DNA of 57,347 nucleotides, counting the filler, from Jimgerdemannia flammicorona (lineage: Eukaryota): assembly GCA_003990765.1 (NCBI GenBank). It is 2 parts of 2 records of this genome, joined end to end, with 100 filler letters (N's around TTAATTAATTAA, not from the genome) between each part and the next. Parts side by side here need not be neighbours in the genome. Positions count along the whole stretch, not along the records: positions 1 to 28,636 come from RBNJ01000548.1; 1 more part is not named here. One strand, given 5' to 3'. Position numbers and translations under genes: made by a program. Shown here one piece after another: positions 1-54,394 of the stretch (its first letter is position 1; every line of letters starts with the position of its first letter). The notes below the pieces were generated by a model that had not been told where the DNA came from, searched no databases, and was given only the letters and a program-made list of their open reading frames with translations.

Positions 1-997
1 CCTCTTGTTCTTCTTCGTCAGTTTCAGTATCAGAGGGGGTTTCCTCAGGGGCAGGGTCTTGGAGTTCTTGGGTCTCCTCTTCAAAGACAGGAACTTCTTG
101 GGCTTCTTCTTGATTTGGTTCCCAAATAATGAGGTGTGAATTATGGCTGACAGGGTGGTGGGTGGTTGGGGTAGCTCCAACAGGTGTCTCTATGGTGATG
201 GGCGGTCCTTCAAATATCTCCATAAGACTCATTAAGTGGCCTTGATGGTTGTCTTAGAGTGGGGTGGTGTGGAAACCTGGTTGAGTAGGTTTGGTTTGTT
301 GGCTTCCTACGGCAATGCGGTTGCTGCCAATAGCATTGGCTACTTCAGATTCTATCCAGTCAGCATCTTCGGTTGATAGGCGGGAGAGGCTACCAGCTGT
401 TACTCCTTGCAAGTGTGCTATAGCCCAGGGAATATGGCGGAAGATTTGATGGACATGGAGGGCTCTCTTGATTAGCCGGCTAGTGGTTAACATTTCGGCA
501 ATGAGGTCTTCCTGGTCGCCTTCTTGAGTCTCATTGCGAAGGCGGTGTCCAATTTTGTAGTCATGCCAGAGGGTCATTCGTTCGGTAGTGTCTTTGAGCT
601 GTTGGGTCATTATATACCGGTAGTTGATAAAGTGTCCAAGGTCCTCAGTGTAGAAGTTCAAGTGTTCGGAAGTATCTGGGCACCAGATGGCCTTCTTGAT
701 AGCTTCAAAGATCAGAGTCTTTGGGCCAGGCAAAGGGATAGAGCGGCGGGAGGTCTGGTTGGTTCGGCGAATAGGAGGCAATGTGTGGTGGGTACCTGGT
801 TCTTTGGTGCCGATCCTTGAGGCGGAGTAGGGTTCCTTAAATAACGTGGTCTTCATTTTGACTCGGGTCATCTTGTCTTCTTTTGGTGAAATCACTTGAC
901 AGATTGGGCTGGTCACCAGTTATTGCACCATAATGTCATCTGATCTTGTGGTCACAGGGTACTCCGAATTTGGATAGGGTCAATTGTAGACGTCACA
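1..997 (-). mobile_element. LTR (family D), cut by the window edge, with accessory ORF in U3
   Basis: Minus strand begins TGTGAC at 997 at a sharp compositional boundary; contains an ORF homologous to those in the other LTRs. Confidence 0.6.
254..916 (-). CDS. LTR accessory protein (family D copy); the frame continues past the TAA at 254 into an acidic Pro/Glu tail running to the window edge
   Basis: LWHDYKIGHRL...RALHVHQIFRHIPWAIAHLQGV matches WQEYKIGNLL...AKKIHQIFRHAPWSIPNLEYV at 31 kb/50 kb; downstream frame reads WEPNQEEAQEVPVFEEETQELQDPAPEETPSDTETDEEEQE; homology suggests the real start is near 781. Confidence 0.65.
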   Translation of the reverse strand: MTSPICQVISPKEDKMTRVKMKTTLFKEPYSASRIGTKEPGTHHTLPPIRRTNQTSRRSIPLPGPKTLIFEAIKKAIWCPDTSEHLNFYTEDLGHFINYRYIMTQQLKDTTERMTLWHDYKIGHRLRNETQEGDQEDLIAEMLTTSRLIKRALHVHQIFRHIPWAIAHLQGVTAGSLSRLSTEDADWIESEVANAIGSNRIAVGSQQTKPTQPGFHTTPL

Positions 998-3600
998 ATA
1001 TATTTTATTTGTAAACATATAGTTGGACTAAATAGTCAAATATATAGACCAAAAATACAATCATATAAACTTAGTATTACTTATAATTATGACCAGTTTT
1101 TATTTAAGAAGTATACAGTAGTATTAGGAATATATATTCAATAATGAATTGTATATAATACAAGAGTCTATAGATTATTAAAACCAAATCTTTATTGACA
1201 TAAATTGAGATTTTTATACATAGTATTTATGGTATTTATTATGCATAGTATTCATAGTATAGTAGTATTTATAATATAGTTTACAAATTTATTATAGATA
1301 CATTTTACATAGTAAATGTATCTTATCTTTTTGTATTCAAGTTAAATCTCATTTACTTACTTCTTATAGATAACAGATCTAGTTCAGCATTAGGTGAGAA
1401 GTTATATCATAAATCTGACATACTTCTTTGACTATATTATTTCACTTTTGGTTGTCTTCTCTTCCAGTAAAATAAGGTAGTACTTTTTTGATCAGTTGAG
1501 TGATCACTATTTCTTATCCTTTTTCAGTCTTATTGTACTGAATTTGTTTATCATATTGCAATTTTTTACTAAATAGATAATTTTCTACAATAGTATTCTT
1601 GGAGGTAGTATTGGTGGTATATATATTCATACAATTCAGAGTATATTCTAGTTGAGTTCATTGGCTCTGAGTTTTGTTCAGGAATTGTATCTTGAGCTTG
1701 TCTAAGGACAGTACTAATTTGTTGAAGTATTTTATTAACTTTGTTAGTCTATTTGGCTTTCTTTAAAAGTCACTATCACTTTTGGTACTTGGCATTTTGT
1801 TTGGTGCTAATAGCATTTTTTTATTTTATTAAGATTTATTCTCTATCATCAAAGACTCTTTATTGCTAGCTAGAGATAGTGATGATATTATTTCTGTTTT
1901 GCTTATATAAAACAATCCTTTATTAACTATAATTTATATTTCTTTCCATTTTACCTATATAGTAATAAACCTGGATTTTATCAATAGTATTAAGAATATC
2001 ATTCAGAAAATCAGAACAGTTGAGTTGCCGATCTATTCTGATAATAAATACTATTTATATATCATTTTTCTTATCTGGATAGCTATGTTGCCAGTCCCAA
2101 ACTAAGTCTCAAATTTCTGTATATTTCATAAACTAAATTGCTAAGAATATAGACAGAAAGTACAATATATAAACTATAATTTTATGATATAAATTCAAAT
2201 AACTATAGATACAAACTAGTAAATACTAACAGATTTATTATTTTGAAGACACAGCTATACAAACTAAATAATAAGTATATGGATAGAAATATATAGTAAT
2301 ACAAACTAAATAGCTGTAAATTTGAACTATATTAAATAATATAAACCTGAAAAGCTGTAAAAACAAACTAGTATATGTGAACTGAAGTTTTTTTCCTGAT
2401 GAGACTATTATTCTTACTGAAAGATAATATGAAGTTATAAACTATATTAGTTAGTAGAGAAAGGCTATGTCACAATATATAAGAATTCTAGCAATATCTT
2501 AATATAGATGAAGAATTTTAGACACTAAATCTAACTATAGTCAAGTGTAGAGAACAGCTATAGCAAAATATAAGATAGTCAGTAAGAGCAACTATACTAT
2601 ATAAAAATATATAAAATCTCTTATTAACAAAGCTTAAGAGATAGTATGAATCAATGATAGCAAAAATATAAATAATAATATAATTTAAAAAATATAGAAT
2701 TTGGGAGAGGATATAATGAGATATAGGATATATATTTAGCTCAATACTTATTTATATATAATAACTTACATTTCATATAAATTTATCTATATAAAGTATT
2801 TGGCTAATAGTAGAATTAGAAATTTCATACATTTGCTATAGATATTCTTTTTGCAAAATTAGAAATTTCTAACTGTATACATTCTTAAATATTATAGAAT
2901 TTTACTATTAGACAAAGTCATCTATAGTAATTTTCTTTAGGATTGATTTCTTATTTTAAGCTATCCAAAATTTTATATTAAATCTATATATTACATAATT
3001 ATATCCTAAGCCTAATAGTAAAATAATATAATTTATTATCATAAGAACTTATTTTTATTTAGTTATTAGATAGTATAATTATTTAGAATATATACTTATA
3101 AATAAAGAATTGGATTTTTTTAAAGACTAATTATCTTTAATATAAGTTTATACTAATATCTTCTTATACTATTTCAAAGTATGATATTCTTATAAAGTAT
3201 TTATAGATACTTACTGATATCTGGTTGGTTTATTATCAGATCAAAGATATTTACAATATTATAGATAGTATTATAGAGATTCTCAAAGAGAGAATGAAAT
3301 TTTCTATATTATTATCATTTTAATAATTCTGTATATATATTATACTATACTCATTTTGATTATTCATAGATTATTGGAATTATAAAAAAGATTATTGAGT
3401 TTATAGTTTTTATTATAATACTTTTAATTATATTACTTATTATTTACTAATATGTAATAATAATCTAAGAGATAGAATTATCTTATATAATCAAATAAAT
3501 AAGTTTAATATATATATTAATATATAATTCTAAAATTGAAAAATAGATATATATATACAATAAAGCTAATTATACCAAGAAACTACTCTTAATCTAACTT
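998..3600. other. Highly decayed AT-rich transposon debris, family not assignable
   Basis: Almost no CpG, TA-rich, no ORFs; same texture as the recognisable decayed TEs. Confidence 0.45.
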
Positions 3601-4099
3601 TGAAGCCAAGCTCTAATTGTTATCTTATAATAATAAAATAAAATACAAAAAAACACTATTATATTTCTTTGATTAATATATATCCAAATTTGAGTACAAC
3701 TCAAAAAAACCTCTATAGTCAGTCTATAATGCTTTTCTTAGAAATTTCTCTAATAATTACATTGGCTAAGAACTATAATTTCAATTACTAGATCTTGTTA
3801 AAATATCTTAGTATCTTAATATATTGTAGTATAGCCAATCTTCACTTATATCATCAATATAGATATTATCAAAGAAATATTATCACAGGATATATAAAAG
3901 TATATATTTTGTAATTAATAATAAACTAACTTGCTCTCTTCCACTCTCTTAACTGTTATCTATAATAAAAATTATAAGCCCTACTTAGCAGCTCTATATA
4001 TCTCTTATATATATACTATATAATATCAACTAATACTAATAGTGGAAGTACCAGAGATAGTATATCAGTTCTAAGTAGTATAAGTGGAATAGGACTCAA

Positions 4100-6094
4100 A
4101 ATGGATATCAGCATAAGTATACCTATTACAATAGTTACAATAATGATCATTCTAGTAGTGACAGTAGTAACAATAGTAAAAAGAATGATTTCTGTCTTTG
4201 ATAGTAAGAATTATGTCATATAGGTATACTATATGAAGAATCTACTTAAATAATATAGTTTGGAGGACTACTAGAAGCTATAGATATAAATAATAATATA
4301 TAATACTATGAAGAATTATAAATTACTAAGGGAGATTATGTTCACTCTTTCAAATATGCAAATGAAGCTCACAATCAATACTACAACAGTGAACAAGATC
4401 TGGGAGATTCTACATAATCACCATCAATAAGTTTTTGCATCCAACTAATTCTACTTAAAGGTATAACTGTTTAATCTTCAAATAAAGTTATCTAAAGAGA
4501 GTATCTAAGACTATATCAATTATATTGATAATCTAACAAATCAAGTAAATTTTCTTATAACTATGCTAGTAGATATCATCAAGAATGAAGACAAAGTCCT
4601 GGTCCTTATATATGGTCTTCCTAAGATATATAATATAGTTATTACCACTATGTAGGAATTCAGCAGATTATCAGACTATAAGCTCATCATTATGAGCCTC
4701 TTGAATAAAGAAACAAGGCTAAGTAGTAACAGTAATAATACTAATGAAACTTATAATGAAAAAGCCTTCTACAGCCAGTAAAGATGAGGCAGAGGCAAGC
4801 AAGACAAAGAATGAGATCAGTGTGATAATAAGTGTAACAGTCAGTATAATAATCAATAGCCAAATTCAATAGTAAATACTTCTACTATGATTAAGCATAA
4901 ATATTACAAACAAGACTACAACTATAAGAAGAAAAAGGATAGTTAAGGACAATAGTAGACAAATGTAGTATATATTAACAATAATAATAAAGATGGCAGT
5001 AGAGATCTATTTTTTACAAAAGTGATAACTTACTCATATAGGAGTAAATTTGGGAAATACTTTTACATTGATGAAAAATATTAACATAAGTACCAGCACT
5101 AATGTAAGCTATATACTGAGTAATACTTATATATGTAGCAAAGAAGTCTGGCTTATGAATTCTGATATAACATAACATATGACTATATACTATAAGTAGT
5201 TCTCTATATATGAGAAGTTTGAGTACTTCATACCCATTAAGTTAGGAGATAATAATGTAATATATGCTCAAGACAAGAGCAATATTAGTATATATTTATA
5301 CAAAAATGTCAATAAACTCTCAAGCACCTTTGTGGATATATTATATACATATATTAGATATAGATAAAAATCTCTTCTCAATAGGTCAGATAATTGCTTG
5401 AGAGAATAAAGAAGTCAATATATACCTAAATAGCATAATAGTGATCAATCTAAAGAATGATAAGAAGTTAATATATACATCAAAAAAGAGAAACTTATAT
5501 ATAATCAATAGTATATCAAGTAGTACATTATCTATATATTCTACAACTATAGCCAGAGAGGATCTCTGATATATAGTATAAATACTTAAGATATATCAGT
5601 AAGATGAGCTTGAAATAGATGACAAAGAGTAGTTCAGTAAGAGGATTACTAGTGAACTATATATCTCTGACTTCTTTAGTAATAATTGTACACCAAATAA
5701 GGCTTCCTGATAACTATTTTGGGAATAATTGAATCAAATAGCCAGAATTCTCAATATAATACATATGGATATCTGTGGTTCCATACATACCCCAATATAC
5801 TCTGAAAAGAGGTATTATATTATCTTTATTGATGATTATACTCATAAAGCCTATATATACTTCCTTATAGTGAAGAATGAGGTATTTAAAAGATTCCAAG
5901 AATTCAAAATAACTATGGAGAATGAAATGAGATATAAGATATAGGCTCTATACTCAGATAATAGTAAGAAATATATAAATAAAGCCTTTTGACACTTCTT
6001 AAAGAAGTATGGTTTCTAATACTCTATAACAGCTCCCTATATATCTCAGCAGAATGGTATGGCAGAATGCTTTAACTGAATGATAGTAGAAATG
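4100..6094 (+). pseudogene. Copia gag-protease-integrase, 5' part
   Basis: FDSKNYVI*VYYMKNLL (gag N-terminus), WLMNSDIT*HMT (decayed WxxDSGAxxHMT), IIHMDICGS...YYIIFIDDYTH (integrase core), QQNGMAECFN. Confidence 0.85.
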
Positions 6095-6878
6095 TATAAT
6101 AACTCTCACTTCTATCTCTCTCTTATCCTTTGGATAATTAGGGAAGTAAGACTATTACTTAGGGACTTAGTACATAATGTATACCAAGAAGCCTTTAGTT
6201 TGAGGAAGTACTTGCTTAAAAGTAATTGTAGCAGTAGTGCCTTCTATTTCAAAGATCTTTCTCTAGTTTGTCATATCTTTCAAGAGTCTTGTTCTTTGCT
6301 GTGCATAGACTGAATTCATCTTGGAATTTAGATTCAATGAGTTTACTTAAGTCTTTGGGGATTTATATATCAGTCTCAGTTCTGGCAAAGTTAGCTAGAC
6401 TTCTGAAGTTTAGTCAGAAATACTAGAGTCACTTAGATGTCATTACTAAGACTCAGAGGAATGTGTGTGTATGGGGGAGACTTGATTCTTATATCAAAGA
6501 CTACTTTATTTTAGATGGAAACTGGGGGGTATTTATACAAATTGGTCTGCGATTTCTGACTAAGTATGAGTTACTAATTTGGTAACTATAATGAGATTTA
6601 TAATCATGATCTTTGTCAGGTAGTTTTTGGCAAAAATAACTTTATGATCAGGATCTCAATTACTAGACAATAATCAGCTGCTATAGTAATAGTTACTGTG
6701 ATACTTATTGTCAGAGATAAACTGAATATTGTTTTTTACATCATTTTCTGCATTGTTCATTAATTCATCATTCATTATTCATATGTTATGCTCGATTGTA
6801 TGATGATGTCATTGCTCACTGGGTCACATGATCACTCATCATATCTCATCTATTTGTTTGCTCATTTATTCTATTACA
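6095..6878 (-). repeat. 3' LTR of Gypsy A (784 bp)
   Basis: Direct repeat of 16527-17133 plus 19413-19557; TATAAATACCCC on the minus strand near 6530. Confidence 0.92.
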
Positions 6879-6893
6879 TTCTTCCCTCCTTAG
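6879..6893 (-). promoter_or_regulatory. Polypurine tract of Gypsy A
   Basis: Minus strand AAGGAGGGAAGAA abuts the LTR start TGTAAT. Confidence 0.8.
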
Positions 6894-6913: not shown

Positions 6914-7717
6914 TCAGAAATTGAGAACCAGGAGAGAGAAAGGTAGAGAGTCTTCCTCAGGGTTGTTACCATCTTCTTCAATGGCAGGGGGGGTGATTGC
7001 TGATGACTCACTGTCTAGGATGGAGAAGTCAATAAGATCTGCAAATGGTTCTTATATTGAGATGAGCACTGGTATAGAGGTTTTCCATCTGATACAGTTG
7101 GGACCATCCAAGTAGAGTTCTTGGTCCTCATGCCTGGGGATATCCATTCAGATAGACAGTCCTTTGAAAAGATCAGAGAGGCCTTAGAGCCATTAGTCTG
7201 GATTATCATTCAGGAGGGGGCTCCAGTGAGGCTTGATGTCTATAGACTTGAGAGTAATCTAAGAGTTGGCTTCTTAGGCTACCTTGATCTCTAGGGCATC
7301 AACCTCAAAGAAAGAGAGGTTCTGGAAATTCTTCAGTTGTATATAGTTGAGATTGGGAATTACAAAGAATACATAGTATATGATTTGATGGACCTTCTTA
7401 ATAAGTCTTTGCTCATGTCTGTCTAGGTAAGTCTAGTCTGAGACCTGGTCAGTAGGTAGGCTGTTTGTATATTGATGAAGCTGATAGTCAATTTCATATT
7501 CATGCCAGATCTCTAGGCAACTGGTAGCAAGGTAGACTCTTTCAATAAGTTTACAGCAGTCAAGAACATACTGTCCTAGGTCCAGGCTGAAGAGGTTAAG
7601 GGCCTCAGAGTGGCAGTTCCTTCCTTGGATAGCAACCTGAATGTGTCCAAAGAGGTAGTCAATCTGGCTTGGGAGGGGCTAGCTATGGTAGGCAGTTTGA
7701 TGGTGGGTAGTAGGCAT
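6914..7717 (-). pseudogene. ORF3 accessory gene of Gypsy A (268 codons, in-frame stops only)
   Basis: MPTTHHQTA...CLEIWHEYEIDYQL...IKKVHQII...IPNLNYIQLKNFQNLS...WSPLLNDNPD...VLNF*, colinear with the family C LTR ORF. Confidence 0.8.
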
Positions 7718-7778: not shown

Positions 7779-7790
7779 GGGTATTTATAC
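7779..7790 (-). promoter_or_regulatory. Putative internal TATA box for ORF3
   Basis: GTATAAATACCC, the same motif as the LTR TATA, about 65 nt upstream of the ORF3 ATG. Confidence 0.5.
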
Positions 7791-8390
7791 TTATTCATCT
7801 ATCTGGTGTGACCTTCTTTCAGTCATACTTTTCAGCAAAATATATGACCTGTTGCTGTAAGCAGGACATATACTAGTCACATGAGAAAAAAAAAATCCTG
7901 ATTTCAAAGATATTGTCACTTGTAGTCATGGTTATACAGGGTTAACAGGTCTTGGTCCTCTTTTTTTTTTTCTGATTGGCACATTTGTGAGAACTAGCCA
8001 TTCTTGTCTAGGGCAAGGGCTCTCATTATCATGGCTGGGGGTTCAAACCTCTCAGAAATAGTATTTCTTATAATCTGAGGCAATTTCTAGTAGCAATATC
8101 TGTCATGTAGATGGACTTAGACTGGTTTTGACATCATCAGCTTTCTTAAGTTCTATATGAAGCATCTATCATCATTCAGTGGAGATGACACAGATGATAT
8201 GAAATAGAGTTGTTTAAATATATTTTGCTATACTATACTAGGTTATCCTTTGCTTGAGTATCTTCTCATTGATTATTTATGATGTTCCCTTGTTTCTGCA
8301 ATGTTCAGTATTATGTATTTCAAATAAAATATGTAGTATTCTTCTACTCACTATGTGCTCCAATTCTTAGAGCTACAGTTCCTTTCTTTG

Positions 8391-11300
8391 CTAGAGAGTG
8401 AGTATTTCCATATAGTCCTGGAGGGCTTCACATATATTTTTCAGAACTTCTTCTTTTTCCCAGATATGTAGCATCATGGGTGGGATAACCCTTCCACTTG
8501 ATGAGGAAGAACCACTTGATTGTTTTGGAGTATTTGCAGACCTTGTGGTCAAGTACTTTCTCAATTTTGAATTCCTTATAATCATTGATCCTAATTGAGA
8601 GTGGTGGTGAGACTGTATGCTCAGGGAATGGGTTCTCATAGTAGTTCACCAATTGGCTGATATGGAATACTGAGTGTACTTAGATATTGTGGGGAAGTTG
8701 CAACTTATAGTTGACTTTACTGATTTTTTCCACAATCTTATATGGTCCAATCCTTCTAGCATAGAGTTTCTTGGCTGGTTGTTGTACCAAGATATCTGGA
8801 TGGAGGTAATCTATTCTAAGCATAACCCTGTCACCAATATTGTAGGAGACTTCTCTTCATTTCAAGTTCGCATACTTGGTCTGATATGTAGTCTTATACT
8901 TCTATGAGAGCATCTCTTATCATTCAGGTAAGATCAGAAATGGTCTCAGCCAGATATTGGGCTGCTAGGACTGCTGATTTCACAGTAGTACTTGAGGTTC
9001 TTGGGTGTTGACTGTGGTTTAGGAAGAATGGAGTCTTCTTTTAGAGGTTTACTGACTGTTATTGTAAGCAAACTCAGCATGGGCTAGGTACTTGTCTCAA
9101 TTATTTTGCTTGTAACAGCAGAAGATGCTAAGCATCTGTTTGAGAGTCCTGTTGGTTTACTTAGTTTAACCATCAGTCTGAGGGTGGTAGACAGTAAAGA
9201 ACTTTAGCTTGATTCTATAGAGAGAGAAGAATGCCTTCCAGAAGTTGCTTGTGAACTTGGCATCTTGGTCAGATATAATAGTACTAGGTATACCATATAG
9301 CCTGAATACTTGGTTGAGGAAAATCTCAGCAATCTCTGGTGCCATGATAGTGGTTTTGATGGGTGCAAAATGGGCTTATTTATTTAGGTGGTCTATAAAT
9401 ACCACTATGGCATCCCATCCTGCTTTAGTCTTAGGGAGTTGAATAATAAAGTCTATTGAAATCTGATCTCAGTTGTGACTTGGAATTGGTAGCAGTTGCA
9501 GAAGTCCTACTAGTAGCTTATTATCACTTTTGAACCTTTGGCACATCTTGTATAAGGCCACAAAGTCTTTGAATCCTTGGTCATCTTTGGCCAGTAGAAC
9601 TCTCTTAAGAGGAGGTTGTAGGTCTTTTCAAAACCAGAGTGTCCTGCTGCAGGAGTATCATAGAGTTCCTGCATGATCTTGAGTTGCAGAGTATCATTAT
9701 TGAGTACAATCACTCTATTATAGTCCCTGTAGATAAGTCCATCATGGTAAGTGAATCTCTTAGATATTTGCCTCATGAGTTCTAGGACCTTGGCTTCTGG
9801 GTCTTAGCAGAATTAAAGGAATTTCATCAGGGGGCTATCCTGCTGGTAGCTATCCTTAATAATCTGGGTAAGGTCTCTAATTACCTCGACCATGAAGATA
9901 AGTTCATCTTCTATGTACCTGGAGAAACCATTAGCCACACAGTTGGTTTTGCCTGAGATATACTTGATTTCTATATCAAAGTTGGCAATGATTTCCATTC
10001 AGCAGGCTTGTCTGTAAGTTAGCATGGACTGTGTGTGAATGTACCACAGGGTATGGTGATCAGTATAGGCTATAAATAGTTGTCCTAGGAGGAAATAGCA
10101 CTATTTCTGGAGTACAGTAATAATGGCCAGGAGTTCCTTCTCATGGGTGGTATACTGGGTCTCAACTGGCTTAAGCTTTTGGAAAAGATAGACCACTGGG
10201 AAGTCTTCTTGGCTGAGTACTGCCCTAATGGCAATATCAGAGACATCTGTGATCAGAGTGAATGGTCTGGTAGGGTCAGGTGCAATTAGCACTGAGGTCT
10301 CAGTAAGGAGTCTCTTGAGATAGTCCATAGTCTGGATGTATTTAGGGGTCCATTCAGTCTTGATGTTTACTCCTTTACAGGCCAGACTGGTCAGTGGGGC
10401 TGTAATAGCAGAATATTCTTGGATAAACCTTTGATAATAATCAGCAATACCCAGAAAGCACTGGAGTAGCTTGAGGGTAGTAGGGATAGAAATATCCTTG
10501 AGAGCTGATACCTTTCAGAGGTCTACATTGATACCTTAAGTAGAGATGATATGTCCTAGGTACTCAATCTGGTCTTGATAGAACTTAAACTTACTTATTT
10601 TGATATAGAGCTAGTATTCTCACAGAAGGGTCAGTACTTGTCTGAGGTGGGTATAGTGCAACTCTACTGTTTTGCTGTAGATTAGTATATCATCAATATA
10701 AACAAGGATACAGATGTTGAGGAGTGGTCCAAAGATATCATTCATCAGATACTGAAATATTACTAGTACATTGGTTAAACCAAAAGATATGACTCAGAAC
10801 TAGTAGTATCTAAACTGTGTTCAGAAAGCTGTCTTTTCAATGTCCTTCTCATCAATGAGAATCTGGTGGTAGCCATTTTGCAAGTCTAGTAGAGAAAAGG
10901 TCTTGGCCTTGAAGATTTGATATAGCAACTCATCAATCCTAGGTAAGGCATACTGGTTCTTGATAGTAATTTTGTTGAGGGCTCTGTAGTCAATATACAT
11001 TCACAGAGAGCCATCCTTCTTCTTAACAAATAGAATAGGGGCTCCAAATGGGGAGCAGCTGGGTTCAATGTATTCTTAGACCAGTAGTTTGGTCAACTCA
11101 TTCTTGAGGGTCTTGAGTTCAGGTTGGGTCAGTTGGTAGGTACTCTTATATGGGGATTCAGATCCAGGAATGAGATTAATCCCATGTTGAATTTGATACT
11201 TGGGTAGAAGTCCTTGAGGATCTTGGAATACATCTTGGAATTCCTCAAATAGTTCTTGAGCCTCTGTTGGGATTGGACCACTTGTAGCTTCAGTGACTTC

Positions 11301-12042
11301 TTGTATAGTGTAGATGAAGTAGGTGTTTCCCTTTTTTCAGGAGAGTCTCTTCATTTGGATGGTAGAGATGATTTCAATTTCTTGATGACTGATGTCTTCC
11401 TGGGGTGTCAGGATGATCTTTCTTCTTTCATAAGTCAGGTTAACTTTGTTGGTCCTCTAGTTGATATCTGGGTTGTGTTGGGTCAGCCAGGCTTTTCCTA
11501 GAATAATGTCTTGTCCTGGGAGATCTACAATACTGAAGTCCAACTTCTCTTGATATTTGCCAATCTTGAGCAAGAGATCTTTGCAGATCTTGGTCAATGG
11601 TGCAGTTTTACCATCACCAAAGGTAACACTTCTTTTCTCAGTAGCTGGTCTGCTTTGGGCTCCAATCCTCTTGGCAGTCTTAGTACTGATATAGTTTTCA
11701 GTAACACCACTATCAAGCAAGATATTGATATTCTATCTGTAGACTTGGCTTATGAACTTGATGCAACTGTCCTCCTTCTTAATGGTGTTGAGCTCTTTAT
11801 TCTCATTGTTGTCCCAATTGCTATCAGTCTCCTCAAAGTCAGTTTCTCCCCATCCTTCACAAGGAGAGTTGCCTTGTTTGGATTTCTCAATCTGTTGGAC
11901 TTGACGCTTCTCAGATTGAATTTTGAAAACTTTAGAGAGGTATACATGATATTCACTAATATGTTCTATGTAGTACATTCAGATAGAATGAGGGCATCAT
12001 CCACATGGTGCATAATTATCTGCAATTCTCCTATACTAGTTT
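8391..12042 (-). pseudogene. pol: Gypsy A pol: protease, RT, RNase H, integrase, chromodomain
   Basis: MLDSGVTENYIS (PR), LVYIDDILIYS (RT), LITDVSDIAIRAVLSQ and THEKELLAI (RH), AAGHSGFEKTY (IN zinc finger), FKIEKVLDHK...FLIKWKGYP (chromodomain). Confidence 0.92.
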
Positions 12043-14105
12043 TGTAAGAGGGTTGCTTTTTAGGATAACTGTTACATAGTTCTGGAAAGGTTTTCTGGAT
12101 ATTCTGGATGTTCTGGAAGACTGTTTTCTTATGGTCAAGGTCAATTTCATATGGAGTACGTCCTCTACGCTTATTGATTTCAAGATCGGGTTGACGTCTC
12201 AACCAAAGTCCTCTTTTGGACTAGTTCTAGATGTTCAGAATTTTCTGTATTTCAGGAAGTTCAAGAAACTAAGACCAGCTTAGTTGAATTGGTGTATTGC
12301 TGTAGACAATACCCAATTAGGAAATTCGTGATGGGGTTAGGAGTGGGACCTAACAGGGAGTGGATTTACTTAAGAGTGGTTTGTGGGTTATTCAAATAGG
12401 TTTATTCGCTATTCATGATATTGCTATACTAGGAGTAGTTGTGTGAAGGGATATTGTGGGAAAGTATTCAGGAATGTTCTTGTGTATTCAAGTCTGAGAT
12501 TCTGAGGTCTGAGGGAGGGGGTATTTATACTAGTGAGGAGCTATCTGGACTATGCTAGATATGGATGTAGCACTAAGTGCCTTGCTGAGTCGGAATGCAG
12601 TCACGTAGTACAAGTATGATCTGATATATCAAGAGATCATCTAACTACTGAGTCAGTTCACAGTCACGTCATATAAGGCTAATCTAACTATACTATGACT
12701 GCTAGGCTATTTATGGGTTTAGGCACTGTCTGGATAGTCCTCGATGACATCACCATCGATTGTATCATCTCTGATGAAGTAGTTGTCTAGGAAGAGTGGT
12801 TCGCAGATTACTTCTCCTTGTTCGCTGAGGTAATAATATATTGGAACTTCATCTCTGTCTCATAAGATGGCATCATCAGTCTCATATGCTGGGAAAGGTG
12901 TTAGTGGGCAAAGGAGGGGTACATTATTTTCACTTTCATCAGATTCATTGTCTGCATACCTTCTGTAGGTTACAGCACTATGAGTCACAGGGTTATAGTA
13001 AGCTGGTGGCTGTGGTTCATGTCGCTCGTACTCGGGTGGTGGAGTGGTTGGTTCGATCTCGAGGGTTGTCTGAAGGTACAGGTTGTGTTCTCCAGTCTCT
13101 TCATTGTAGTTGAAGTAATCAGGGGTAAATGTGGGTTGGTATTTGTGCCAGTGGTCATTGTTCCAATAAGTCTCGTATATAGTTATGAACTGTTGTAAGT
13201 TCATCGGCAAGGTTGGCGGTGTGATCAGGGTTGGCAGAGATCCTTGGCTAGAGGTCATGTCGGCATCAGAGGGATCATTGTCTTCTACTTCATCTTCATC
13301 AAAGTGGATTATATCGTAGATGTCCTTCATGGCATATCCAACTTGGGGCATTTGCAGGATGTGATCATTGGGGTAGAGGAAGGTTCGGTCTGTGGTTTCA
13401 ATATACTCGAGGTACTTCTGGTTGAGTTCTTATATCATGTCATTGATTTGGCCATAGGACAGGGTAGCAACCATTTCGCTGGTAGTAACTCAGAGGTGAG
13501 GAATAAAGGTGCTATACTCATAGAAGAGTTCTCAATGTTTGCAGGCGATGAGCTTCTGGTGTTGAGACATCTGGATAATATCTGTATCATGGTGGTGTTC
13601 GACCATGTCTTCCAGGAGGTGGCCGATCTGGTAGTAGCTTGAGATTTGTCCGATTCGGTGGGCTTCGCTAAGCATATTCAGAGCATTCCATCAGGCTTCT
13701 ACGAAGTAGAGGGGTGCCAGACTATGGATATTCATGAGGAGCAGAGGGGGTGTGGCTTGGTTGACAATGGCATTCCAAATGTCAGCATAGATATGGTTGT
13801 AGATCTCAGTGGTCATGTTTGTGTTTGGAAGTTGTAGTTGTTATTTATTTGTTTTGGTTCTCTGATTCAACGCATCTCGGTGCTCGGTATATATGTATTT
13901 AGTCCTGATTGGTAAGATTCCATTTGTGTAAATCTTGTGTTCTGTGACTTTGTATTGACTCAGCTTTGTACACTGTGACTTCAGTTTGACTCAGCTTTAT
14001 GATCAAGCAGATGATTTCCAGATTTGTTCAGGGTTGCATGTGATTTCAGTGGCTTGTTCAGAGGGTGATGTATAATTTTGGTGGCTTGGGGGTTGTGCGC
14101 TTACA
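12043..14105 (-). mobile_element. 2063-bp solo LTR (family B) inserted in Gypsy A
   Basis: TGTAAG...CTTACA termini; perfect 5-bp TSD AGTTT; TATA near 12525 and AATAAA near 12400 on the minus strand; second copy at 28737-30009. Confidence 0.88.
12719..13816 (-). pseudogene. U3-encoded accessory ORF of LTR family B (366 codons, in-frame stops)
   Basis: IYADIWNAI...IGQISSYYQIGHLL...IACKH*ELFYEYSTFIPHL*V then a D/E/P/Y-rich tail; same frame as the listed ORF 12860-13351. Confidence 0.75.
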
Positions 14106-14157
14106 AGTTTTCATCATCTTCCTTCATGGTAGTGATCTTTTGACTGGAAGGTTTGTT

Positions 14158-14530
14158 GGCTGATCCAAACCCTTTCTTACTATAGTCTGTCTGGGAGAGC
14201 TTGGGAACTTCTTTAATGGTGAGATCTTGATGGATTTCTTCAATGATTGCTTAGGTAATTCTTTGGCCTACTTTGACTTCAAATGAGGTGTCTCCAAAAT
14301 TTCACAAGATAATACAGATTTCACCAGTAAATCTTTGGTCAACTACTCCTCCTTCTAGCCCAATATTGAACTCTTTGGCTAGGCTACTTCACTCAGTAAG
14401 TTGGATATATATATCTTTGAGAGCTTGTATTGCAATTCCTGTTCACACTATAGCATTGGTACTTGGTGGAATAGTGAGATCTTGGCTGCTATAGAGGTCA
14501 TATTCAGCATTGGTTGGGTGGGCCTTAGTG
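14158..14530 (-). pseudogene. dut: dUTPase domain of Gypsy A, between gag and protease
   Basis: All five motifs in order: AEYDL, E*SSLA, GVVDQRFTGEI, GQRIT*, KKGFGS. Confidence 0.88.
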
Positions 14531-14589
14531 GGGATGGTAGCCTTATACTATATCTTCTGTGCTTTGATGACATTCTCAGAGTTCTTCTT

Positions 14590-16420
14590 CTCTAGACCTT
14601 CTTCAATGACAGTAATGTTCTGGTTACTGGGTTTGCCTGATCTGTTTCTCTTCTTAGGGCATTTGAATGAGATGTGTCCTGTCTTCTTGCAGATAAAGCA
14701 CAATCCCTTTTTGTGGAGCTACTTCTTTTCATCCTTGGTGGGAGGTCTGGGTCCTCTGGGGTTTTGCTGGTTCCTTTGATCATTTCTTTGATCATATCCT
14801 TGGTCATTCCTTTGATCATTTCTCCTGGTAGGATTCCTCCTATCTTGGTTATCCTTTTTGTTTTCTTGATTTCATGGGGCTTGTATAGCAAGGATTTCAT
14901 GGACTCTTCTTTGTACTTGGGCAAAGTACTATAAATAGTGGGGACATCCTTGGGGAAGACCTTATTCCTTGATTTTCTGAGTAAGCCAGTCTGGTAGAGC
15001 TGCAAAAAAATAGTTGACTCTGGTATCATTGATGGCCAAATTATTCTCCTGGTAGGTAAGTCCAATGGTTTTGAGGTAGGCATCCATTCTAGTGGCAAAG
15101 GTCTCTAGATCCTCCTTGTCATTCTTGTGGAACTTCATTGGGACAGTTTGTTCCAAGTTTCTTATATATAGGCTATATTTTGGAATTTGGTCAGTAGCAA
15201 GGCCTTGAGTCCTGGGCCTGCTTCATAGTCATCCCAACCTGGTCTGTTATGGGCTTGTGCCTAGCCTGTAACTTGAGGGTGGTCTTCCCAGGTTACTGAG
15301 TGTTGTTCCAAGGTTTGCCAGAATTTGGCTGCTGTTCCAGTGAAGAATGTGGCTACTGTTTCCACTTGTGCTACTGAGGTAGCAAATAGCTATTGAAGGG
15401 TATTATTCTGGTTATTAGTGAGTATTCCTATAGACACTCAGTTATCATTTCATTGGTTTACTCGGTAGCCTGTGTCAACTATATTGATAAAGTTTTTGAT
15501 GTCACTGTTTTTTCCACTAAATGTTGGAATTTGCAAGGTCTTGGTTGGTTTGTTCTGTTCAGCAATCTGTCCTACTATCTTTGCTAGTGCTGCTAGCTGG
15601 GTAGTCAGTGCTACAATGTTGGCATCTACCATTGTATTGACTATTGGTAGTGAGTCTGTTAGGGTGGATTCTCCTAAAGATTGTTCTGCTTAGTGGGGTT
15701 GTGGCGCTGTTTGACTTGGGGTTACTTGATTCTCAGATATCAGATCAAAGAGTTCTGTGAGAGAGGGTAAACCAAACCTCTATATAGGTGGCTGGGTTGG
15801 TTCTGGGGTCTGATCTTCTTGACCTATAGTTCCTTGGTAAATTCCTAGACCTGCTATTCCTAGTTGGCTATTGTCAGACTGATAACCTGTAGAGTCTTTA
15901 TCTGACTCCCTTCTCTGATGAGATAGTATATCCTCATACTGACTAGATCCTTCAAAGAGGATATCAGTTTCTGACTGAGTAGATGGGCCTACTCCTTGTT
16001 CAGCAGTAGGGGATGGGTGGTCTGCTTGCTCATTCTCATATCTGATTATAGCAGAGGCATAGTATATAACTAGCCTGTAGTAGAGAGAGGTCTTGGTAGG
16101 TGTATGATGATATCTGTCAGAGGTAATCTACTTAGCAGCTGCTTCTCTTGCAGCAGGGAATGAGATATAATCTAAAAAATCCTGGGTGGCTACAGCAGTA
16201 GATTCTGGAGTCCTAGTGGTTCCAATATATCCACAGAGAAGTTCATAGAACCTATGGTGGCTGACTATATTTCTAAGTCCTGGGTGATAAGTCCTAAAGG
16301 CCTGGTATAGATCCTTATAAGCCTGGTCAATTATAAGCTAGTAGGTCTCTAGATCTGTGGTTTCTTGGTATGTACCACCTGGTCCTAATAGTAAGGGCTT
16401 CTCTGGCTCTAGTTTGGGGA
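14590..16420 (-). pseudogene. gag: Gypsy A gag
   Basis: CCHC knuckle GLCFICKKTGHISFKCP at about 14655-14710; LQIPTFSGKNSDIKNF capsid-like segment; start approximate. Confidence 0.8.
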
Positions 16421-16510
16421 TCTACAGTTGGTTCTGGAGATTACTCCTGTCTAAGGTTAGTCTTGTTCCAACTTCAAGAGTGTGTTCTTGATACCATCTT
16501 GGCTTGGTAA

Positions 16511-16523
16511 TCCATTGCTACCA
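16511..16523 (-). promoter_or_regulatory. Primer binding site of Gypsy A
   Basis: TGGTAGCAATGG 3 nt after the 5' LTR; TGGTAGC fits initiator tRNA-Met. Confidence 0.65.
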
Positions 16524-17424
16524 AGTTGTAATAACTCTCACTTCTACCCCTCTCTTATCCTTTGGATAATTAGGGAAGTAAGGCTATTACTTAGGGACTT
16601 AGTACACAATGTGTACCAAGAAGCCTTCAGTTTGAGAAAGTGCTCACTTAAAAGTAATTGTAGTAGCAGTACCTTCTATTTCAAAGATCTTTCTCTGGTT
16701 TGCCCTATCTTTTAAGAGTCTTGTTCTTTGTTGTACACAGACTGAATTTGCTTTGGAATTTAGGTTCAATAGGTTTACTTAAGTTTTTGGGGATTTATAT
16801 ACTGATCTCAGTTCTGGCAGAAGTTAGCTAGGCTTCTAGAGTTTAGTTAGAAACACTAAAGTCACTTAGATGTCATTACTAAGACTCGGGAGAATGTGTA
16901 TATATGGGGGAAACTTAATTATTATATTAAGGACTGAACTAAAACTACTTTATTTTGAATGGAAACTGGGGGGTATTTATACAAGTTGGTCCACAATTTC
17001 TGACTAAGTATGAGTGACTAATTTGGTAACTATAATGAGGTTTGTGATTAGGATCTTAATTACTAGGTAATGATCAGCTACTATGGTAATAGTTGCTGTG
17101 GTGCCAATTGTCAGAGATAAACTGAATATCGTTCCCCCTTTCTCTGCTATCTTACTGGTTACAATGGTTTGGTAGACAACCTTCTGAGTCCACTTTCCAC
17201 AATTATTACCCCCTCTACCTCAGGTTGGTTTGCTGTACCTATTGCAGGGCAGTGGGAGGAAGGCAATGGTGATGAGTTGCCCCTTTATCAGTGTCAGATC
17301 AGTGTCTTCTCCACTTTTTCACAGTTTCTGGTACCTTTGGCTGTGTCTGGAGTGCATCCATTTTGGTGTGGCACTTTCTTCCTTTTGCCAGTACCAACAA
17401 GGTGTTGTCTTGGTGTATCTCGGG

Positions 17425-17848
17425 TAGTGCTCCCAAACAAGTCAAATCAATTCAAATCGAATTGAATTGAGGGTTAAATGAGTCAAATCGAATTGGGGAT
17501 TTTTCAATTCAAATCAATTCAAATCGAATCAAAAGTCAAATCGAATTGAGGGTCTGATTTGAACCCTAATTTTCAAAATGTAATAACTCAGCATAAACTC
17601 ATCCAAATCTAACATACTTTAGCTTGTTAGAATCACATTAATATGGTGAATCTAACAAGCTAAAATACGTTAAATTTGGATGAGTTTTCGTCGAGTTATT
17701 ACATTTTGAAAATTAAGGTTCGAATCGAACTTCGAATCGAATTGGACCTTTGATTCGATTCAAATCAAATCGAATTGGACCCTTGATTCGATCGAATCAA
17801 ATCGAGTTTGGGCCAAATTTGATTTGATTTGATTCGTTGGGAGCACTA
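17425..17848. mobile_element. hAT-type foldback MITE
   Basis: TIRs TAGTGCTCCC...GGGAGCACTA; 8-bp TSD ATCTCGGG/GTCTCAGG; mostly palindromic with TCGAAT subterminal repeats. Confidence 0.85.
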
Positions 17849-18291
17849 GTCTCAGGCTATATAGGGAGTTGGTCAATCTTGAGCATCAAGTGCTCAGTAT
17901 AGGTTACCTACAGGTCTTCAGTACCTGTGGTGGGGCCCTCTGGCTTTGGCAAGCTTCCCAGCAAGCATGGTTCTGGTATATGTGACTGCTTTTTGGGTGT
18001 TATCAGGATGGGAGGGGAGATGGCCATCACAGATAGGAGGAAGAGCAATAATAGTGAACCAGTAGAGTACCAGGCTGGGGGCAGTCATCAGAGCTGGGGC
18101 AGGTGCTGCTTTGGTGGGGCCTTTTGATTGGTTAGGTAGTAGGTGACACTCTCGGCTTCTTTTGGTAGATTGGCGGGTTGGACCCTGGTTGTCAGGGGGG
18201 GTTGGAGGGCCTGAGGCTACCTATTTCAGATATCTTGGCTGCACTCAACTGGAACTGGGAGCTGATATGGTAATGTGATCAAGGCCCACAG

Positions 18292-18939
18292 TAGTGCTCC
18301 GAACGAGTCAATCCGGATGGGATTCGGATGGATTCGAATTGGATTCGAATCAGATTCGAATTGGATTCGAATCGGATTCGAATCAACCATTGTTTTGATT
18401 TCCAAATTAGACAATTAAATGTTTACATCAATAACTTGATGAATAATCATCCAAATTTGATGATCTTGGTGTCATTTGAAAGCCCTTAATAAGGCCTTTC
18501 TAATGATATTAAGAACATTAAAATCGGATTACGTGTTGCCGAGATATTAAGGAAAACGTTCCATTTGACGAAATTTCCAAAATCGGCAAATCAAAGAATT
18601 TCCAAAATCAGCGATTCAGACGTTTTCCTTCATAACTCAGCAACGCATGATCCGATTTCAATGTTCTTAGTATCATTAGATAGGCGTTATTAAGGGCTTT
18701 CAAATGACACCAAGATCATCAAATTTGGATGATTATTCATCAAATTATTGATGTAAACATTTAATTATCTAATTTGGAAATCAAAACAATGGTTGATTCG
18801 AATCCGATTCGAATCCGATTCGAATCTGATTCGAATCCATCCGGATGGGATTCGAATCCCATCCGAGTTGATCCAGATGGGATTCAATCCGAATCAATCC
18901 GAATCCAATCCAGATTAAATTGACTCGTTAGGAGCACTA
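18292..18939. mobile_element. hAT-type foldback MITE
   Basis: TIRs TAGTGCTCC...GGAGCACTA; perfect 8-bp TSD GCCCACAG; about 270-bp inverted arms with GATTCGAATC arrays. Confidence 0.92.
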
Positions 18940-19557
18940 GCCCACAGGCTTGAGTAGTGGGGTATTGGGGGTCTCCTCCTGCCTCACATATAAGTTCTTT
19001 ACTCACTTCAACTAGAAGAACCAGGCCCTACCCACTGTGTTGTACTTTGATGAGAGTTTTTTCTTTGCCTATCATTCTCTTTGAGGTGACAGGGGCTATT
19101 CTATTCAGCTCGGGCATGGTCTTGTACATATGTTGGGTTCTCGGACATGCACTTTCGGTCATTGGTGTATGGCTGGATTTCCCCTGGTGGTAGGAAGAGC
19201 ATGGTACACAGAATGAGGTACAGGCCAATATAGGCCCTGCTGTGCCTGGTATGATCAAGCTACTGAACAATAGCTAGCCTAGGTTAATGGGGGGGCAGTG
19301 CTTAATAGGTGGTGGGGGAGGGTTTTGACCTATATAGTCTAGGTTCCCTTCCAATAAAATTCTACAAGATATTGAGTCTGTTAAAAAAAAAAGAGATAAA
19401 CTGAATATCATTTTTTACATCATTTTCTATATCATTCATTCATTTATCATTTGTTATTCATATATTGTGCTTGATTGTATGATGATGTCATCACTCACTA
19501 AGTCACATGATTGCTCATTGCATCTCATCTATTCACTTACTCATTCATTCTATTATA

Positions 19558-21327
19558 AAATAGCTTGAATAATAATAAATATGACTAACTTATTATACTT
19601 CTTCTAGACTAAAGCAGTGAATACAGTGGTATATACCTGAAACCATTATGTTTCTCAAGCTCTAAGCAAGGAATCTGGTAATAATCAATAATCTAGGAAT
19701 GATGCTAATCTTACTCCTAAATAATTATGAAATAAAAATAAGTCAAATATCTCACATATATATATATATCTTCAGTAGTGAGGCTTACATTCTAGATAAG
19801 AGTAGAAATAGAGATAAACTTGAGCCTAAGGCAGATAAACATATATTCCTTAAATATGATGGAATGATATATAGGCTGTAGAATACTCAAAAATAGTATA
19901 TAGTGATATCTCATGACATTCAGTTCAATGAGTGGATCAAAAAGTATAAAATTTATATAAAAATTACATTAAATCCAACAATAGTTTCAGCAACATCTAT
20001 GTCAACTTTAAAGGCAAGCAGAATAACCCCTATGTTAGTACCAGTATAGCTAATATATATGTCAATACTAATAAGACTACTAGAGTCAAGAATTACAGAA
20101 ATTATAGATGAGGATAATGAAGAAGATACCTCTCCAAAGGATAAAAAGAAGTACAAATCCAGAATTTTAGAAGTAGATTTAAAAGATTATTAGGACTTAT
20201 CTAAGATATCTTATCATAATCATTATATGAACTATGTATATAAATATAAATATGCTTATATAGTAATAACTGGTGAGCCAGTAAACTATAATGAAGCCAT
20301 TCACTCAGATGATAAGAAAGAGTGGAAAAAGGCTATAGATAAGAAGTATAATTTGTTTATCAAGAATAATATATAGAATTTGATTCCTCTTCCAGTGAAT
20401 TAATAAGCAATAAGATCTTACTAGATATGTATATAAGATAAAGTACAATAGTAATGGCAATATAGAGCAATACAAGGTCTGATTTGTGATAAAGGAGTAT
20501 TCATAAAGAATATAGCATAGACTATGATGAGATCTTCTCCCCAGTATTTAAGCTTACTTTGCTTAAAATACTTCTTATGATCAGAGCTAAATATAACTAT
20601 GAAATTTACTAAATAGATATAAAGACAGTATTCTTAAATAGCAACATAGATACCAAACTATATCTATTAACCACAGGATATAAACTATATGACAATAAGC
20701 AAAAGGAGCTTATATACAAACTATGTAAAGAACTCTATAGCATCAAGCAAGCAGTAAGACTGTAGAACTAAAAAATTGATGAATATCTTATAAATAACAA
20801 TAGATTCAAAGTTGTAAAGCCAATTTATATATACATATACTTAACATATATTTTCAAGAATAGTATATTTAGAAATTTGAATTGATGACATCATTCTGGT
20901 TGGAATAGTGAGTGAGATCAATAAAGTAAAGATAGTACTATACAAGGAGTTCAAAATGATGGATTTAGATAATACATTCTTTCTTTTGAAGATATCTATT
21001 ATATATAATAGGAGAGCATATACTATACATCTAAGCCAAGGAGCCTATATCCAAATCATACTCAAGCAATTTAGTATGAGCAAATACAAATCTATCAGTA
21101 TACCTATGAAAATATCTGTGAGACTGAAGAAGTCTGAAACTATATCTGAAACTAAGGATATTTCCTATCAATAAGTAGTGAGATCTCTTATATATCTTAT
21201 ACTTAGGATAAGACCCAATATATTATATATAATCAACAAAGTAGCACAATACTCATTATACTATAACAATTCTCATTAGATGGGAATTAAGTATATATTT
21301 AGATACATTAAAGGCATGGCATACTAT
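19558..21327 (+). pseudogene. Copia integrase C-terminus and reverse transcriptase
   Basis: FF*TKAVNTVVY, RDKLEPKADKHIFL, EPVNYNEAI, DYDEIFSPV, IDDIILVG, HLSQGAYI, RYIKG. Confidence 0.85.
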
Positions 21328-21634
21328 ATGGGGTGTGCTGCAACAAAACTAGACAAAGTGAACATATGTATTAACTTCTTGTTTATTAGCAGCTAAGTCT
21401 TTTTTTCCTCAGATTTTAACATACTCTTCAAGATCTCTTAGATCCTTTTGTTTTCCATTGAGCCTCCTAGTTGATTATGATAAATTAATCTTTCCCCTTT
21501 TCACCATCTGGCTGTTTATTCACTATGAATCAAAATAGGAAATTGGTGATGATATCAATCTTGATAAATTTTCACTAATTTTAGAAAATTGACAATAAAG
21601 TGGCTCTAACAAAGAAAATTCTTATCCATTGACC

Positions 21635-23907: not shown

Positions 23908-24919
23908 TTTGAGGAAGTGACGCACTTGGAGGTAGTGGATGGAAAGTGGATTCGAGTGAGTAAGAAGCAGTGGGAATGAGATCAGGGACATAAGAGACAG
24001 AGGGAACTGTTAGCGAAGATGAAGGGTGGGCCTCAGAAGGATATGAGCAGGATGGTGGACATGGGGGGGGCCAAGGTGAGTGTCTGGGCAGGTGAAGAAA
24101 GTGGGAGTGCTGGGAAGAGGACTGGCAAGAACAGGGAGGCGACTGGCAAGGACCCATATATGGATGGTATACTGAAGGTTTGGGATGAGATATGGGAGAA
24201 TTCCCCTACCCCTACTCTCTCATCAGGCAGGGCCCAGCTTCCCGAAGCAGGGTGGTGGAGAATATGCCAATGTAAGGGGCCCAATGAGTGCAATTTGGAG
24301 TTCTGGAGGCAGCGAAAGGGGGACAAGTGGTGGTGGTCAGTGAGGAGGAACTGGTGGATGTCCCAGAGGAGTGGGACAAGGCTGCAAGTGCTGGGGCTGA
24401 TACCACAATGCTGGATGGTGGGAGGCTGGCAACCCCTGGAGGAAAGAAGGTGGGGAACCTACTTTGGATGTGCAGAATAATGAACAACCTGGTGGCCAAG
24501 GAGCTGGGAGAGGTGGATTTGAGGGTAATGAGTGATGAGCATTGGGCAAGGATCCTGCAGGGAGAGGGGGTGGTGATGGCATTGAAGGTGGAAATTCTTG
24601 CAGTGTATCTGGAGGAGAAGGGCTATGAGGTAGATAAAGAGAGAGAGGCAGAGATGGTGGGAGTCATGGGAGAGAGGGCTGAATACTGCTGGACCAAGTG
24701 TTATGGACTGCAGCTCTGGTAGGAAGCCTGCCTGGAGTACTGAGAGGAATTCGAGGAGAAGGCAGATGGGGAGATGAATGAGTTGTTGGCTGGACTGGAG
24801 GCTCAGAGGACTGAAGAGGAGGCAGTGACTGCAGAACATAATCTGGACTTGGTACAGGAGGAGTGAACATGGAGCAGTAGAGGAAGCTTGATAATACACC
24901 ATCTTTCACTATAAATAGT

Positions 24920-28636: not shown

Positions 28637-28736
28637 NNNNNNNNNNNNNNNNNNNNNNNNNNNNNNNNNNNNNNNNNNNNTTAATTAATTAANNNNNNNN
28701 NNNNNNNNNNNNNNNNNNNNNNNNNNNNNNNNNNNN
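28637..28736. other. Assembly gap with artificial TTAATTAATTAA spacer
   Basis: N runs flank a 12-mer placed centrally in a 100-nt gap. Confidence 0.95.
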
Positions 28737-31835: not shown

Positions 31836-31844
31836 AGTCCTTTG

Positions 31845-39197: not shown

Positions 39198-39235
<38 letters not shown>

Positions 39236-54346: not shown

Positions 54347-54358
<12 letters not shown>

Positions 54359-54394
<36 letters not shown>

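Follow-up and report, generated by a model that had tools for sequence, protein, structure and literature searches.

The question raised by this locus is whether a set of similar open reading frames, scattered among the decayed retrotransposons of the fungus Jimgerdemannia flammicorona, represents a gene that these elements carried, and what such a gene would do. Extra ORFs without known function are common in LTR elements; to our knowledge almost nothing is known of the roles that they play, and fungal examples are barely described. An earlier note on this DNA proposed one accessory gene family shared by four LTR retrotransposon families, with homologous ORFs at 1-916 (minus strand), 6914-7717 (minus), 12719-13816 (minus), 28737-29323 (plus), 30976-31835 (plus) and 49796-50623 (minus). 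All of these spans were located in the window (the whole stretch of 57,347 nt that was analysed), and we refer to the ORF as ORF3. The copies are as follows:

2-781, minus strand: ORF3 copy A (family A), with one internal stop, cut off by the start of the window
6914-7717, minus strand: ORF3 copy B, 268 codons with eight internal stops; HMM score 217.4 bits
12719-13816, minus strand: ORF C, 366 codons with five internal stops and a long acidic tail
28739-29323, plus strand: second copy of the tail of ORF C, an open frame
30976-31835, plus strand: ORF D1, with four stops; HMM score 302.2 bits
49796-50623, minus strand: ORF D2, with three stops; HMM score 371.8 bits

The family HMM was built from 14 intact database relatives and scanned over the six frames of the window. 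It matches copies A, B, D1 and D2 alone (217-372 bits; 326.9 bits for copy A), plus a weak, collinear match at the N-terminus of ORF C. Judged by their sequences, copies A (2-781), B, D1 and D2 are clearly homologous: blastp E-values are 3e-17 for A versus B, 9e-19 for A versus D2, 2e-15 for A versus D1, 7e-37 for B versus D2 and 8e-34 for B versus D1, and D1 and D2 share 69% identity. Copy A is identical to an intact protein of 325 aa (P0002) at 208 of 260 aligned residues, and the intact part of copy A is covered by P0001 (254-916). ORF C is probably a weak relative in this family: its blastp E-value against copy A is 0.053, a 135-aa piece of it alone scores 15.7 bits (none of 2000 shuffles reaches this score, the best having 8.2), and hhalign gives a P-value of 4.4e-4 with a probability of 33% over 123 collinear columns. 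The frame at 28739-29323 shares 88% protein identity with the tail of ORF C only, and the family core is absent from it; the tail of ORF C itself is 64% identical to the database protein P0029. The claim of six homologous ORFs thus holds for A, B, D1 and D2, is probable for C, and for 28739-29323 reduces to the C tail. The motifs that had been cited are all seen in the alignment (IFxxIKxAM, WHEYEIGHxL, AKKxHQIFRHxPWxIxxLxxVxV...LS, WxPxLxDNPDQ and a terminal VLNFLL), and the outcome named in the earlier note as fatal to its idea, a lack of significant alignment among the families, did not occur for the A, B and D copies. A count of four distinct LTR retrotransposon families is putative, pol being attached in B and D2 only.

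Elements B and D2 were delimited by a domain survey (Pfam, with 341 ORFs of 55 aa or more, each read from stop to stop) and a self-comparison of the window, with the following parts:

6097-6876, minus strand: 3' LTR of element B, which starts with TGTAATAG and ends with ...TTATACA
6879-6891, minus strand: polypurine tract (PPT) of element B, AAGGAGGGAAGAA, immediately preceding the LTR start
8431-11732, minus strand: pol of element B, with PR, RT, RNase H, integrase (H2C2, rve, SH3) and chromodomain, from Pfam
14131-16528, minus strand: gag, zinc knuckle (zf-CCHC) and dUTPase of element B, from Pfam, reading frames and homology with the gag-dUTPase of D2
19555-19392 and 17133-16529, minus strand: 5' LTR of element B, in two pieces around a 2.3-kb insertion, with a PBS-like TGGTAGCA just inside
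51196-57050, minus strand: body of element D2, with gag, CCHC, dUTPase, PR, RT, RH, IN and a chromodomain-like region

The 3' LTR of element B repeats 16529-17133 and 19392-19555 at 80.6% and 83.5% identity, respectively, and the PBS-like sequence presumably matches initiator tRNA-Met; a target-site duplication was not found for this element (its flanks are TATTT and TTTCT). The 2.3-kb insertion in its 5' LTR (17134-19391) contains an inverted-repeat pair (17552-17729) that recurs at 34532-34708 with 74-76% identity. Gag and dUTPase of element B form a single reading frame, and the order of Pfam families along the minus strand is RVP_2/gag-asp_proteas, RVT_1, RT_RNaseH_2, Integrase_H2C2, rve, SH3_Tf2-1 and Chromo. 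ORF B starts 714 nt past the chromodomain match (the spacer of ∼600-700 nt between pol and ORF3 is non-coding), and its frame ends 23 nt ahead of the PPT-LTR junction, outside the LTR. The same ORF-PPT-TGTAATA junction is found at L001, a metagenome locus of 1,535 bp that was identified by a single-protein scan, where the stop of the ORF overlaps the PPT. The body of D2 has Pfam matches to dUTPase and SH3_Tf2-1, is collinear with B by tblastn (27-40% protein identity, chromodomain region included), and shares the plan of B, with the ORF placed after IN-SH3, the chromodomain-like region and the spacer.

Both elements show the arrangement by which chromoviruses are recognised (PR-RT-RNase H-integrase order and a C-terminal chromodomain), and the carriers of ORF3 are a fungal chromodomain Ty3/gypsy group with a dUTPase between gag and protease. 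ORF B and ORF D2 lie on the same strand as their own pol, i.e. in sense orientation. ORF3 is present in B and in D2, the two elements of which the 3' end can be seen, and the fragments A, D1 and C add three more copies. ORF3 is a sense additional ORF (aORF): it is on the sense strand, lies between pol and the 3' LTR, and recurs across families. Copy A is fragmentary and has a decayed copia element next to it, and a search for pol upstream of the copy (Pfam on 917-6096, minus strand, read through) returned no family.

The surroundings of these copies hold several other repeats. Decayed Ty1/copia remnants occupy 917-6096 and 19666-21171 (plus strand), the latter with SH3_retrovirus and RVT_2 matches; by eye, a decayed copia-type integrase can be read on the plus strand at ∼4500-5600 (GC 0.20-0.27), opposite to the strand of copy A. 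The protease region of element D2 contains a processed histone H3 retrocopy (54359-55150, minus strand) with a short 5' UTR, an intronless CDS of 136 codons in open frame (55092-54683), a 3' UTR of ∼290 nt that includes AATAAA and is followed by a poly(A) of 35 nt (54393-54359), and a ∼15-bp target duplication (TATATATTACT.TT). The lack of introns, the poly(A) and the target duplication are the hallmark of LINE-mediated retroposition. Relative to what we take to be the canonical H3, it has R to C and R to H changes, which would mean CpG transitions. A G-rich stretch at 21600-28100 (plus strand; GC skew ∼+0.5, GC 0.50) includes a tandem duplication (21635-22760 versus 22778-23906, 78% identity) and a non-LTR-type RVT_1 match (26642-27088), and is possibly the LINE family behind the H3 retrocopy. 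Finally, diverged copies of a Kelch-repeat gene are clustered in tandem at 36000-48000 (minus strand; Pfam Kelch at 36267-36494, 40115-41641 and 42296-42850), with many internal direct repeats of 65-85% identity and one open ORF of 509 aa.

Was ORF3 a gene before these copies decayed? Three of the spans are exact codon multiples (804, 1098 and 828 nt), as had been claimed, and the internal stops have the expected form: for 18 of 21 an intact relative has a residue at the aligned site, and in 13 of these 18 it is W, Q or R, as expected from transitions. Among the substitutions between D1 and D2, 183 of 222 are transitions. The window is repeat-rich, with decayed transposons and AT-rich blocks (GC 0.20-0.52), and the AT-rich blocks have TpA/ApT values of 1.04-1.09, which are RIP-type index values. 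The transition bias, these values and the changes in the H3 retrocopy fit a fungus in which repeats are mutated by deamination.

Relatives of ORF3 are rare: there were 11 matches among 1.84 billion representatives, four of which were rejected, and a word-indexed search of 5.8 billion entries gave 14 relatives; one relative was found for ORF C. The phmmer matches P0015, P0017, P0018 and P0019 (E-values from 2.7e-5 to 3.1e-4) are spurious, each consisting of 5-7 stretches in proteins with TPR or mixed repeat-type Pfam matches. All database relatives are found on JGI or ENA environmental contigs and are labelled at most 'hypothetical protein'. The earlier note had loosely likened the core to the expanded ARKIYxLF hypothetical proteins of Glomeromycotina; no taxon is given for any of the 14 relatives. 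The 14 database proteins form at least four subfamilies, and intact full-length relatives are available from four subfamilies: P0002 (325 aa), the ORF of L001 (291 aa, in the subfamily of B), P0012 (342 aa) and P0020 (271 aa).

The in-frame dN/dS is 0.19 for L001 versus B (with a dS of 1.85, near saturation) and 0.28 for D1 versus D2, low values despite the decay of the window copies after insertion. For the same alignments dN/dS is 0.76-1.33 in the two other sense frames, and 0.38-0.45 in the antisense frame with shared third positions. Compared with the other sense frames, the in-frame values, which are not near 1, indicate that ORF3 was a real gene, as do the intact relatives of 271-342 aa. 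Between B and D, ORF3 is 33-39% identical and pol/gag-pol 27-40%, so ORF3 is about as diverged as pol. We conclude that ORF3 is an accessory gene of fungal chromodomain Ty3/gypsy retrotransposons (chromoviruses) that was under selection and is lineage-restricted; the homology, the position after pol and the purifying selection bear out this central part of the earlier note.

The ORF3 protein has 270-340 aa, with a short basic N-terminus, a helical core of ∼190 residues and an acidic, disordered tail dotted with hydrophobic residues, in which a VLNFLL terminus is frequent. The first 40 residues carry a net charge of +1 to +8, and the tail -14 to -26 (20-34% D+E). The N-terminus is basic and polar without a signal peptide, and the hydropathy peak (Kyte-Doolittle, mean over 19 residues) is 0.64-1.07 in five proteins, with no membrane segment. 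From these properties the product is predicted to be soluble and not an envelope protein, in agreement with what had been proposed, and an envelope-like ORF of the Athila/errantivirus type is ruled out. Two AlphaFold2 runs on shallow alignments gave models of low confidence (mean pLDDT 52 and 56; core blocks 70-93) that agree in the order of helices (residues ∼20-187) and include a small hairpin as well as a disordered tail.

Searches for relatives by domain or by fold gave nothing above noise. Pfam on four intact ORF3 proteins (E up to 10) returned no family, and a sequence profile search of the PDB (E up to 10) returned no match. In the ESM Atlas the top feature score was 0.83 and the top TM 0.33, both under the lead level. 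With low-confidence models as queries, a wide search by VIA-align gave a best Z of 4.5 (0 of 48,161 chains at Z of at least 5), Foldseek against the PDB gave a best E-value of 0.41, and Foldseek against BFVD a best E-value of 0.051, with no retroviral regulator among the best 50 matches. ORF3 is an orphan protein family, without a match above noise in Pfam, the PDB, named proteins or fold searches. A duplicate of gag or capsid was considered and rejected: the family HMM has no match on either gag region in six frames, and Pfam gave none. It had been suggested that the protein combines a helical nucleic-acid-binding domain with an acidic activation domain; the models and the charge support a helical domain with an acidic tail, and the fold searches lend nothing to a nucleic-acid-binding fold. 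A match to a characterised retrotransposon ORF, another finding that was to count against the proposal, is missing from the results of the Pfam, PDB and fold searches.

The position of ORF3 relative to the LTR is clear for element B, and families C and D present a different picture, with four units of the following form:

12043-14105, minus strand: C unit of 2,063 bp, with TGTAAG...CTTACA ends and a 5-bp duplication, AAACT (14106-14110 and 12038-12042)
28737-30009, plus strand: second copy of the C unit, 5'-truncated, 89.4% identical to 12043-13305, with the tail of ORF C and the LTR-like part
30734-32362, plus strand: D1 unit, homologous to D2 from TATAATGATGAC to ...GTGACA, with CTAT on each flank; holds ORF D1
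49319-50836, minus strand: D2 unit, located at the 3' end of element D2, with TGTAATGGTGAC as its start and ...GTGACA as its end; holds ORF D2

The C unit makes up the ∼2 kb that element B has in excess of D2 between dUTPase and PR, and consists of a promoter-like stretch, ORF C and then an LTR-like part with TATAAATA and AATAAA. If the unit is excised together with one AAACT, ...KEDDEN runs on in frame into (stop)YRRIADNYAPCG..., and the joined sequence matches D2 past its dUTPase. The TG...CA ends, the AAACT duplication and the restored host frame thus place ORF C in a separately integrated unit. The second C copy has the same right end as the first (...CTTACA, at 30009), and is adjoined by runs of N at 28637-28680 and 28693-28736 (44 each), filler between the joined parts of the window. 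The D1 unit has no pol of its own upstream. The starts of the C and D units (TGTAA-type) look alike by eye, and a block that precedes ORF3 in B, L001 and A can be aligned with the start of the D unit. Right after the stop of ORF D, in the LTR-like part, are ∼35-bp repeats, about three in tandem (TGTTACACTGGATAATGCCAGCACCGGTATTCT...; 49680-49790, minus strand, and 31840-31950, plus strand), which are enhancer-like.

A unit with TG...CA ends and a 5-bp duplication in the gag-pol frame of another element suggests that ORF3 may be within the LTR, and we consider it somewhat probable that the ORF is inside the LTR in families C and D; a solo LTR would then be a self-contained gene cassette. But the LTR of element B starts past the ORF, so an LTR-embedded ORF would require that the boundary has shifted in C and D, the alternative being that C and D1 are insertions of truncated cDNA. 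On this alternative, priming at a purine tract inside the element, upstream of ORF3, would have given cDNAs that then integrated as the C and D1 units, with a left end that resembles a U3 terminus. Three observations would suit truncated cDNAs: element B has an 18-nt purine run (7956-7973) ∼20 nt before a block similar to the beginnings of the C and D units; the C unit closes with 680 bp that have the look of a complete LTR (with TATA box and AATAAA); and no polypurine tract lies ahead of the proposed LTR start of D2. However, a PPT is also absent between the ORF and the LTR-like part in both C and D, and two independent units begin with TGTAA-type sequences that look similar by eye; on balance, truncated cDNAs appear possible and rather doubtful. 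A search for a 5' LTR remnant inside the C unit (blastn-short) gave chance matches of 7-12 nt alone.

Several copies also have promoter-like signals upstream of the ORF, in particular TATA-like heptamers:

837-843, minus strand: TATTTAA, 62 nt upstream of the start of copy A
7783-7789, minus strand: TATAAAT, 72 nt upstream of the ATG of ORF B
50704-50710, minus strand: TATAAAA, 87 nt upstream of the ATG of ORF D2
30889-30895, plus strand: TATAAAA again, for D1

Such a heptamer is found 62-87 nt before the ATG in A, B, D1, D2 and L001 (the sole one in 300 nt for B and L001), to be read against a background in AT-rich decayed DNA, where TATA-like motifs are frequent, of ∼0.05-0.21 per 50 nt in the two elements. 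A 25-nt leader before the ATG is nearly identical in D and L001 (...TTACCACAAAC.AA.ATGCC), with proteins that are 46% identical. TGASTCA sites precede C, D1 and D2 by 118-171 nt, C having two of them within a tandem repeat; over the entire window this motif is not enriched (14 observed versus 9.9 expected). The TATA-like motif, the shared leader and the TGASTCA sites suggest a candidate internal promoter and a separate mRNA for ORF3.

The explanation of the whole that we lean towards is an accessory ORF3 gene of chromoviruses with the putative role of a separately promoted nuclear regulator. ORF3 would be transcribed apart from the rest of the element, from a TATA-type internal promoter 60-90 nt before its ATG, and the protein would work in trans in the nucleus, as an activator of element expression or as an antagonist of silencing; its core would dock on nucleic acid or on a host factor, and its acidic tail would bring in host machinery. 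That ORF3 had both its own transcript from an internal promoter and a function as trans-acting nuclear regulator of element expression is, taken jointly and from sequence features, a tentative proposal. A bolder version, by analogy, in which ORF3 would be a self-promoted Tas-like activator or silencing suppressor that moved into the LTR in some families, so that solo LTRs would be expressible in trans family-wide, seems to us improbable.

The analogy is with foamy virus Tas (Bel1), a regulatory gene 3' of the structural genes whose product has an acidic C-terminal region and which has an internal promoter. ORF3 resembles it in position, in the acidic tail and in having promoter-like motifs just upstream, but differs in its fungal host; no sequence or fold likeness was found (best E-value of 0.051 in BFVD, with a low-confidence model). 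Other retroviral genes, MMTV sag and lentiviral nef, are embedded in or overlap U3 of the LTR. ORF C is similar to these in that it lies ahead of an LTR-type TATA box and AATAAA, within a unit that has TG...CA ends and a target-site duplication; it has no homology to sag or nef, and the ORF of family B is outside the LTR. In fungi, an additional antisense gene of Boty-like elements in Botrytis, brtn, was reportedly described by Zhao et al. in 2011. Both brtn and ORF3 are extra genes in fungal Ty3/gypsy elements, brtn being antisense and ORF3 sense; a gene of the brtn type is ruled out here by ORF B and ORF D2 being on the pol strand.

A known class of additional ORFs occupies the interval between pol and the 3' LTR in LTR retrotransposons, and a review covers this class for plants (PMC7264820). 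As far as that review's account of the class goes, ORF3 is alike in place, in sense strand and in its presence in most copies of a family, and it is unlike in lacking envelope-like features, in being a distinct orphan family, and in occurring in dUTPase-bearing fungal chromoviruses. Fig. 3 of PMC2864245 shows fungal chromoviruses with an 'add. ORF' of unknown function, which may or may not be the same ORF as ORF3; the paper also mentions a dUTPase in fungal elements, Tuber Tmt1 included. No description of the ORF3 protein family was found in a full-text literature search, with the Tmt1 paper (Riccioni 2008) and the supplements of PMC2864245 outside its scope. The statement that ORF3 is not a described Ty3/Gypsy gene therefore holds within that search, in that no family description was found, and is tempered by what the figure legend of Novikova et al. 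indicates and by aORFs being a known class.

Other roles for ORF3 would also account for part of these data. The protein could be a cofactor of the particle or of integration, packaged in the virus-like particle or binding integrase/chromodomain or gag, and aiding assembly, nuclear entry or target choice. ORF3 has diverged between B and D about as much as pol and is found in both elements with visible 3' ends (B and D2), as would suit such a cofactor; but it has no likeness to capsid or nucleocapsid (the HMM skips gag, and Pfam is empty), and we think this role unlikely. Still less probable in our view is an RNA-handling adaptor similar to Rev/Rex, with a basic N-terminus that would bind unspliced element RNA and with tail motifs (DLISF, VLNFLL) that would be signals for export or packaging. 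The position of ORF3 is that of retroviral regulatory genes, the N-terminal 40 residues are basic, and hydrophobic-acidic motifs can be seen by eye in the tails; however, the N-terminus is mildly basic, in P0012 (+1) it is not arginine-rich, and Pfam gave no RNA-binding domain.

Gene capture by LTR elements is known, and the H3 retrocopy inside element D2 is an example of a host gene present in one of these elements, so ORF3 might in principle have been taken up from the host, or be a passenger that does nothing for the element. Against this, ORF3 is found at the same place in several diverged families, has diverged like pol and shows purifying selection; no cellular homologue was found either, the 14 relatives from the word search being unnamed and the contigs listed for them short, at 567-4,848 bp (one further cluster member is on a contig of 19,434 bp). 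Capture without a role is very improbable, and we retain the reading of ORF3 as an accessory gene, with a regulatory role as a tentative best guess.

ORF3 thus is a selected, predicted soluble, non-envelope ORF common to diverged chromovirus families. Natural intact versions of it can be cloned, and the promoter-like signals upstream of it can be tested. The family offers a handle on the question of whether retrovirus-style regulatory proteins exist in retrotransposons outside animals, e.g. acting against genome defence in repeat-rich fungi. If it is true that ORF3 sits in the LTR of some families, solo LTRs would be gene-bearing units, and the annotation of such repeats would change.
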